Positions 39,557-40,135 are shown, numbered from the stretch's first letter. The stretch is 47,754 nt of DNA from a virus (IMGVR_UViG_2778261224_000004), one strand, 5' to 3'. Notes: generated by a model from the letters alone, not told the origin. A program made the numbers and translations.

Positions 39557-39580
39557 GTAAAAAAGGCCCCCGAAGGGGCC
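39557..39580 (-). terminator. Rho-independent terminator (minus strand) after small ORF 39587..39709
   Basis: GGCCCC-TTCG-GGGGCC followed by TTTTTT on minus strand, 6 nt after the stop codon. Confidence 0.6.
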
Positions 39581-39586
39581 TAATCG

Positions 39587-39709
39587 CTACTTGCTGCTAA
39601 TGTTTATCGTCACATTCAGAGCGTTATCAGTAATCTTCCAACCCTCCCCATGTGGCGTAAACAAAGCTCCAGTAACAACGATAAAAATACACATACAGTA
39701 TTTTTTCAT
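39587..39709 (-). CDS. Small hydrophobic peptide ORF (40 aa), candidate type I toxin-like gene
   Basis: Hand translation MKKYCMCIFIVVTGALFTPHGEGWKITDNALNVTINISSK; own terminator; 15-nt segment in its 5' UTR repeated at 40033-40047. Confidence 0.35.
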   Translation of the reverse strand: MKKYCMCIFIVVTGALFTPHGEGWKITDNALNVTINISSK

Positions 39710-40106
39710 TGTATGGCCCTTACAGGCCGTTTCACGGCATCCCCACCGACGAAAACAACGCGAGAGCAAGCACGGCTGCTTGTGCTTGCATGTACGGCAA
39801 CGGAGAATCCTCCCCTAAAGTCGGTGCCCGGGTGCGAATCGGCGGGAAGGTCCACAGGTATTTTACGATTATTTTAAGATTAGTTATAGGAAAGAAATTA
39901 AACGAAAAAACTCGTTTATTTTCACAAAATCAGTAACCTACCCACAATCTGTGAGTTTGCAGGCACAACAAGAACCACAATTTTTTGAAGCATAATAGTG
40001 GACTATTATTACCTTTTGGGTAAAATTAACTTGCTGCTTGTGCTTGCGTGGTTGTTTATACAACGACGTTATGCTGAAAGGACCGCGAATCCGATCAGCA
40101 CGAAAG

Positions 40107-40135
40107 AACCGTCCTCAATAGGGCGGTTTTTTTGT
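40107..40135 (+). terminator. Rho-independent terminator (plus strand)
   Basis: ACCGTCC-TCAATA-GGGCGGT stem (one G-U) followed by TTTTTTTGTTT. Confidence 0.6.

Follow-up and report, generated by a model that had tools for sequence, protein, structure and literature searches.

A divergent pair of small transcription units on a myovirus-type phage-plasmid is very probably a type I toxin-antitoxin module of the timPR family. It lies in a 47,754-nt stretch of viral DNA (IMGVR_UViG_2778261224_000004), which was analyzed as a whole and is referred to as the window from here on. The system as such is already known, and the copy in the window is an unannotated and diverged member of it and not a new type. 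A preliminary description of this locus had proposed a type I toxin-antitoxin-like pair with a trans-pairing sRNA, a proposal that now finds support in Rfam, in profile-profile comparison and in covariation. Both RNAs and the peptide are homologous to their timPR counterparts, the intermolecular duplex, the leader stem-loops and the pseudoknot covary, and the reading frame is under purifying selection. What is new is the location and the lineage, namely a diverged, mobile and unannotated timPR branch in the maintenance regions of phage-plasmids. No part of the module is annotated in any RefSeq or GenBank record that we inspected, and within the literature collection searched we found no report of timPR or ryfA on phages or phage-plasmids.

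In the known system, ryfA is the timP toxin mRNA. The toxin TimP has 38 aa, is located in the inner membrane and carries a signal-like N-terminus. Its repressor TimR is a divergently encoded sRNA with an intrinsic terminator. The TimR 5' end pairs over 18 nt with the 5'UTR of timP, and this site precedes the ribosome binding site by more than 60 nt. In each species examined, a complementary sequence flanked by a terminator lies upstream on the other strand (Andresen 2020, PMC7667032). Translation of timP depends on an essential 7-bp pseudoknot between stem-loops 1 and 3 (SL1 and SL3; Eleftheraki 2024, PMC11228461), and an interaction of site 2 with site 4 opens SL4, which frees the Shine-Dalgarno sequence (SD; Eleftheraki 2026, PMC13000454). 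The locus was described as a chromosomal one of enterobacteria, with its biological role left open (Andresen 2020, PMC7667032). In the RefSeq record of E. coli K-12, timR (b4811, 100 nt), ryfA (b4440) and timP (b4812, 41 aa) are annotated in the same divergent layout. The features of the window that correspond to this system are listed in Table 1 together with the flanking genes.

Table 1. Features of the timPR-like module and its flanks (window coordinates)
Feature	Position	Strand	Basis or remark
ParA-family gene	38201-38869		Pfam CbiA/ParA
timP mRNA (ryfA homologue), ~297 nt	39559..39855	-	Rfam RF00126; structured 146-nt 5'UTR, 40-codon ORF, terminator
Intrinsic terminator stem of timP	39564..39581	-	Terminator scan; T-run on to ~39557; equals 3' end of Rfam match
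timP ORF, 40 aa and stop	39587..39709	-	MKKYCMCIFIVVTGALFTPHGEGWKITDNALNVTINISSK
Stem-loop 4 (SL4)	39713..39730	-	Aligned to SL4 of the Rfam model; SD inside
SD AAGGG	39717-39721	-	Its G residues lie in the 3' arm of SL4
Pseudoknot site 3, GUCGGUG	39744..39750	-	SL3 loop and 3' arm
SL2 hairpin, GCAAGCAC...GTGCTTGC	39766-39789	-	Repeat copy forms its 5' arm and loop
Predicted TimR-binding site, CAUGCAAGCACAAGCAGC	39775..39792	-	SL2; mRNA positions 64-81
Pseudoknot site 1, CACCGAC	39820..39826	-	Upper part of SL1
Putative timP -10 box, TAAAAT	39860..39865	-	By eye; 4 nt upstream of the Rfam 5' end
timR promoter (promoter-like), TGGACT-16-TAAAAT	39999..40026	+	Promoter scan; 40033 lies 7 nt past the -10
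TimR-like antitoxin sRNA (predicted), ~103 nt	40033..40135	+	Core homology, fold, promoter, terminator
TimR 5' pairing arm	40033-40050	+	Followed by a small hairpin
TimR conserved stem-loop (core)	40073-40100	+	Common with K-12 timR
TimR terminator	~40100-40135	+	3' end of the 103-nt RNA
isrK	40227-40299	+	Rfam, 65.8 bits
C4 antisense RNA	40324-40412	+	Rfam, 77.8 bits
63-aa ORF	40466-40657	+	
ORF6N/Rha antirepressor-like gene	40654-41835	+	

The element and the neighborhood of the module

The locus is 100% identical to that of a 47,492-bp circular E. coli plasmid, and bases 1-24000 of the window are 99.7% identical to Escherichia phage vB_EcoM-613R2 and 98% identical to Yersinia phage vB_YpM_39. 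The record of vB_EcoM-613R2 annotates terminase, portal, sheath and tape-measure genes. Judged by its sequence, the window is a myovirus-type phage-plasmid. A tRNA gene is present at 28380-28452 on the minus strand (Rfam tRNA, 67 bits), with the anticodon loop CUCAUAA and hence the anticodon CAU. About 4 kb from the module (~43744-44400), a RelE/ParE-family toxin gene is accompanied by an HTH antitoxin-like gene (RefSeq, L001 8205-8611), so that the element also carries a type II toxin-antitoxin system.

The preliminary description had placed the locus beside partition genes, and the ParA-family gene together with an 82-aa partner ORF indeed lies directly upstream of the module. A 49-aa ORF (39224-39373, plus strand), called a hypothetical protein in the records of some relatives, is located between the par genes and timP and is followed by a terminator-like hairpin (39388-39410) that the scan calls on the minus strand only. 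No feature is assigned to the next ~150 nt (39411-39556). On the other side, directly 3' of TimR, the succession of isrK, C4, the small ORF and the antirepressor-like gene resembles the layout of P1 immI (c4-icd-ant). The order ryfA-TimR-isrK-C4 was seen again in the related loci L090 and L002. The relatives L004, L005, L008, L009 and L012, among them three Yersinia phages and the plasmid of E. coli ATCC 25922, which has the L004 allele, contain an extra minus-strand XRE/HTH gene of ~190 aa between the TimR terminator and isrK, which the window lacks.

Of 5426 complete E. coli genomes, 72 have the module and 71 have the adjacent par genes; thus, the module is essentially fixed in this element family. 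Its identity across the family is 80-100%, compared with at least 95% for the par genes. The spacer of ~130 nt between the timP and timR promoters (39866-39998) is unalignable among L002-L012, and outside of it the promoters, RNAs and terminators of both genes are conserved throughout the plasmid family. Furthermore, the pairing site has three alleles in this family (GCTGC / CCGC / GCTGT...), and the change is mirrored in both copies. The unalignable spacer and the three pairing alleles indicate that the locus evolves or recombines much faster than its neighbors.

The module is also present, with ~68% DNA identity, in a P1-like viral contig of 79.8 kb (L019, IMGVR_UViG_3300036772_000294). There, timPR has a Rep3 initiator gene on one side and ddrB/darA on the other (4694-10636, including ddrB-ParB/DarA). 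L019 also carries three tandem C4-like RNAs and isrK (1324-1745). An 80.9-kb Buttiauxella MAG contig has a module identical to that of L019. A third copy, with 70% identity, keeps the ryfA-TimR-isrK-C4 order. As assigned by profile comparison, at least two types of phage-plasmid thereby have a diverged TimP subfamily in their maintenance regions. Distant-mode blastn of E. coli genomes gave no link from the window to the chromosomal ryfA locus; only the covariance model and the profile methods connected the two.

Because of its position beside the par genes, the module may aid the maintenance of a low-copy element through post-segregational killing, or it may act in competition between elements. 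However, deletion of the chromosomal timR of Salmonella is non-lethal at native expression (Andresen 2020, PMC7667032), which weakens the post-segregational killing reading. A functional timPR module might also serve the phage itself, either by exclusion or abortive infection of competitors or by membrane damage that aids the timing of lysis. This seems rather unlikely to us, although it has several points in its favor: the module of the window is flanked by the par genes and by the immunity region with isrK, C4 and the antirepressor, the copy of the P1-like contig by the Rep3 initiator gene and ddrB/darA, the locus is far more variable than the par genes, and type I toxins, hok/sok among them, can exclude phage according to work cited in Eleftheraki 2026 (PMC13000454). 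Yet a replication and partition neighborhood in two unrelated backbones suits maintenance equally well.

The timP mRNA and its structured leader

A whole-window Rfam scan at gathering thresholds matched the ryfA family over its full length (model positions 1-296 of 296) with 142.3 bits (E 1.3e-36), while the gathering score of this family is 80. With the same model, chromosomal ryfA copies reach 227-317 bits and diverged phage copies 135-162 bits. The toxin mRNA matched no Rfam family other than ryfA, and no homology to tisB/istR-1-type systems was detected. The peptide gene had been credited with a terminator of its own, which was recovered by the terminator scan as a stem followed by a T-run (Table 1). 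At the other end of the mRNA, the TAAAAT identified by eye is TAATAT in relatives, and K-12 has TATTAT upstream of the ryfA +1. The consensus promoter scan did not call this box, a putative -10 element of the timP promoter. A minus-strand promoter hit of the scan at 39735-39708 was rejected, as it falls inside the conserved leader and overlaps the start codon.

To evaluate the leader, the SL1-SL4 structure derived from Rfam was imposed on 19 aligned leaders, comprising 39 pairs. In this alignment 91.8% of the cells are paired, and changes on both sides occur at 17 of the 39 pairs, a number equalled in none of 500 shuffles. When the 3' partners were slid as a control, pairing dropped to 38-44%. 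The SL4 helix, which contains the SD, is 89.5% paired with three compensated pairs.

The pseudoknot between sites 1 and 3 is conserved as well. All 7 pairs are formed in the window, and pairing is 100% across the 19 homologues. CACCGAC/GUCGGUG in the phage lineage faces CGCUGGC/GCCAGUG in K-12, which amounts to two compensatory double substitutions; over the 19 sequences three pairs are compensated, with UA to CG and GC to AU changes in eight sequences each. Of the helix between sites 2 and 4, the window keeps five of six pairs (GCCGU/ACGGC), and 92% are paired overall. Thus, the phage-plasmid branch provides independent covariation support for the published pseudoknot and RNA switch model. 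The helix between sites 1 and 2 is less regular: in the canonical register the lineage of the window has CG, GC, A.C and CG, compared with UG, GC, GC and CG in K-12. This central A.C mismatch (39820-39826 / ~39794-39799) is absent from the P1-like L019, where the helix is kept. A shifted 4-bp register (GGCA/UGCC) is possible. Given the mismatch, the switch may not work identically in the lineage of the window.

TimR and its pairing with the leader

According to the preliminary description, a 15-nt repeat links the leader of the peptide gene to a terminated plus-strand region. The 15-mer GCTGCTTGTGCTTGC was found in exactly two copies in the 47.7-kb window (39775-39789 and 40033-40047, both read on the plus strand), and no such repeat arose in 100 shuffles with one mismatch allowed, which rules out chance. 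The leader copy, thought to lie about 60 nt upstream of the start and within a hairpin, ends 65 nt upstream of the ATG (mRNA position 147) and is part of SL2. The second copy opens the predicted TimR, and the complementarity expected between a plus-strand sRNA and the leader extends to 18 bp with one G.U pair (40033-40050 against 39775-39792).

The 103-nt plus-strand RNA folds at z = -5.2 as a single sequence, and both hexamers of its promoter are kept in 11 of 11 relatives, where the remaining spacer is unalignable. It could be taken for the mere terminator of a neighboring gene; this was rejected, since it has a conserved promoter of its own and no co-oriented gene lies upstream within 650 nt. 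A 28-nt core, GCTGRAARGRCCGCGAAYCNRAYYAGCA, is common to the annotated timR of K-12 (b4811) and 18 genomic loci. These loci, retrieved with a degenerate pattern of the core, derive from Escherichia, Shigella, Citrobacter, Kluyvera, Superficieibacter, Pseudocitrobacter, Buttiauxella and Salmonella arizonae. In 15 of the 18, a ryfA match of 162-317 bits lies beside the core (162 bits in the phage-type contig of Buttiauxella); in the other three the core is near the end of the stretch compared. The internal stem-loop and the sequence downstream read GCTGAAAGGACCGCGAATCCGATCAGCA in the window and GCTGGAAAGGCCGCGAACCAGACTAGCA in K-12. In a consensus fold of 12 TimR sequences, an unpaired 5' arm is followed by a small hairpin, then by the core stem-loop and last by the terminator. 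Two pairs of the core stem are AU in the phage lineage instead of GC, with both partners changed. Scanning IMG/VR with a 17-nt degenerate TimR pattern returned 80 loci, ~70 of them chance hits, and the 10 real ones were kept by local blastn.

The pairing was compared over 20 loci with 21 TimR copies. For each copy, the 55 nt preceding the TimR core were searched against nucleotides 1-150 of the cognate mRNA for the longest helix without gaps. Fourteen of the 21 copies form a duplex of 17-21 bp between the TimR 5' end and SL2, which falls at mRNA positions 63-85. The remaining seven form 9-12 bp; they include the non-cognate copy of each duplicated locus, and L090, in which a 20-nt duplex is interrupted by one mismatch. 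Chromosomal timPR loci (positions 64-83) use the register of the window. The pairing sequences differ by lineage: GCAAGCACAAGCAGC in the window, GCACAAGTAAGC in L090, GCACGTACGAGT in L019 and GCAGGTGTTTCACAGC in K-12. RNAduplex runs on full-length RNAs were discarded, as they return a long, imperfect and gapped duplex without meaning.

Nearly all non-cognate combinations score lower, the exceptions being related alleles with a common pairing site; for example, the proximal TimR copy of K-12 matches the site of S. flexneri. The window TimR forms its best helix with its own leader (17.5); with the leaders of related alleles it reaches 16.5 and 14.5, and with that of K-12 7.5. Between the window and the host K-12, the longest helix in cross-pairing scores 7-9.5 against the 17.5 of the cognate pair. 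Consequently, the module of the window is predicted not to cross-pair with timP or TimR of the host.

In K-12 (L013, NC_000913.3 2653356-2654158) a second TimR-like gene, which is unannotated, was observed at a distance of ~115 nt from ryfA. By its 5' arm it fits timP of S. flexneri and E. whittamii (17 bp) and not that of K-12 itself, while the annotated distal timR matches the timP of K-12 (20 bp). The two K-12 copies would fit a partly decayed duplication (IS128 RNA region).

The TimP peptide

The minus-strand ORF translates as previously described, to 40 residues and a stop (Table 1). A longer version of 60 aa with a TTG start was rejected as the product, because the aligned ATG and SD correspond to those of TimP. 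The peptide has a basic N-terminus (MKK), a hydrophobic stretch at residues 4-18 with a Kyte-Doolittle value of 2.16 (2.13 in K-12 TimP) and a polar C-terminal half. NCBIfam model NF040796 (TimP) aligns with it from position 1 to 40 of 40 with 23 bits (E 7.1e-5), which is below the curated cut-off of 45 bits. When seven phage-type peptides were compared with ten chromosomal TimPs by hhalign, the profiles aligned end to end with a probability of 98.6% (E 9e-16). Both types have the N-terminal block MK.Y.C(I/V).(L/I)(I/V)V(S/T)G.L in common, and the C-terminal half of the phage type is a distinct conserved type, GEGWK.[TS].N..NVTIN.S.K. A sub-cut-off family score together with a strong profile-profile match points to a diverged TimP subfamily and not to an equivalog-level member. 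A Pfam scan of the 40-aa peptide gave no match. In a collection of 5.8 billion proteins, the peptide is represented by two unnamed clusters of 39-40 aa only, which suggests that its gene is rarely called.

The reading frame is intact in every homologue. Compared with copies 64% identical in protein, pN/pS is ~0.3 (pS ~0.6, pN ~0.19), which indicates that purifying selection acts on the timP frame. These data bear on the view that the ~300-nt minus-strand RNA is mainly a regulatory one, the sRNA RyfA, with an incidental or poorly translated ORF and with the plus-strand RNA as a sponge or antisense regulator. Earlier studies treat RyfA as an sRNA with effects on stress resistance and virulence in UPEC and APEC. 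However, an ORF that is intact and constrained at this level of divergence and an N-terminal hydrophobic segment kept between phage and chromosomal types argue for a peptide product, and both translation and toxicity of TimP have been demonstrated in Salmonella (Andresen 2020, PMC7667032). We therefore consider a mainly regulatory RNA improbable, while the roles of regulatory RNA and toxin mRNA are not mutually exclusive and can coexist. That the module is a decaying passenger captured from the chromosome, with the repeat as a remnant of its ancestry, is hardly credible: its scores are well under those of chromosomal copies (135-162 vs 227-317 bits for the RNA; for the peptide, 23 bits against the 45 of the family cut-off), but the ORF, the two promoters, the two terminators, the pseudoknot and the duplex between the RNAs have all stayed intact, these elements are kept by compensatory change across copies only 68-83% identical, and essentially all members of the element family have the module.

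Proposed mechanism and possible role

For the timPR module of the window, we infer by analogy that both RNAs are transcribed, that the peptide is toxic and that TimR represses it. The minus strand would give rise to the timP mRNA of ~297 nt, the 146-nt leader of which would fold into four stem-loops and switch between two forms. In the inactive form the SD would be locked in SL4. In the active form, the SL1-SL3 pseudoknot together with pairing of site 2 to site 4 would open SL4, and TimP could be translated. The plus strand would yield TimR of ~103 nt from its own promoter, and its single-stranded 5' end would form the 18-bp duplex with SL2 of the active form. As in Salmonella, this binding might destabilize the pseudoknot conformation and so block initiation. 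If made, TimP would enter the inner membrane and cause leakage, as its homology with the Salmonella toxin suggests. Against the timPR reading count the sub-cut-off NCBIfam score, the differing C-terminal half, the timP -10 box identified by eye and the mismatch between sites 1 and 2.

One might speculate further that phage-plasmids carry a host-orthogonal timPR branch, with its own TimP C-terminal domain and rapidly diversifying pairing alleles, as a module for addiction or inter-element competition. This is a tentative idea, which we hold to be possible but on the doubtful side. If true, it would give a first clear biological role to a family whose chromosomal function is still unknown. The mobile branch offers a natural setting for a measurable TimP phenotype, such as plasmid retention, exclusion or competition between related elements. 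In addition, it exposes an annotation gap, since the records are unannotated, the peptide scores below the family cut-off and it is nearly absent from a collection of 5.8 billion proteins.

Comparison with known systems

Among type I systems, tisB/istR-1, zor-orz, shoB-ohsC and dinQ-agrB resemble the module in that a divergent antitoxin pairs with the 5'UTR of the toxin mRNA at a large distance upstream of the ribosome binding site. However, their mRNAs require processing at the 5' end and rely on ribosome standby sites, and their toxins are without a signal-like N-terminus. The hok/sok system (parB locus of plasmid R1) is similar in having a small membrane toxin, an antisense-type sRNA and a place in the maintenance region of a low-copy element. 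In contrast to the module of the window, Sok overlaps hok/mok in cis, and the system includes a coupled upstream ORF and processing of the mRNA 3' end. The sRNA of the window is encoded apart from its target and would pair through a short repeat, the timPR family reportedly has no need of processing, and there is no sequence or Rfam relationship between hok/sok and the module.

Chromosomal timPR is closest, although the copy of the window differs from it in several aspects. It is located beside parA on a phage-plasmid instead of in the sseA-sseB intergenic region, and its two 5' ends are ~178 nt apart, compared with ~400 nt to the annotated timR in K-12. SL4, the pairing sequence and the C-terminal half of the peptide are different, the helix between sites 1 and 2 is imperfect, the peptide remains below the NCBIfam TimP cut-off, and the locus is unannotated in RefSeq. 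The two have in common: divergent genes with one terminator each, a ~300-nt mRNA of the unprocessed type, four leader stem-loops with the SD trapped in SL4, a 7-bp SL1-SL3 pseudoknot, complementarity of sites 2 and 4, pairing of ~18 nt between the TimR 5' end and SL2 at ~65 nt ahead of the start codon, the TimR core stem-loop and, as predicted from its residues, a ~40-aa peptide with a hydrophobic, signal-like N-terminus.
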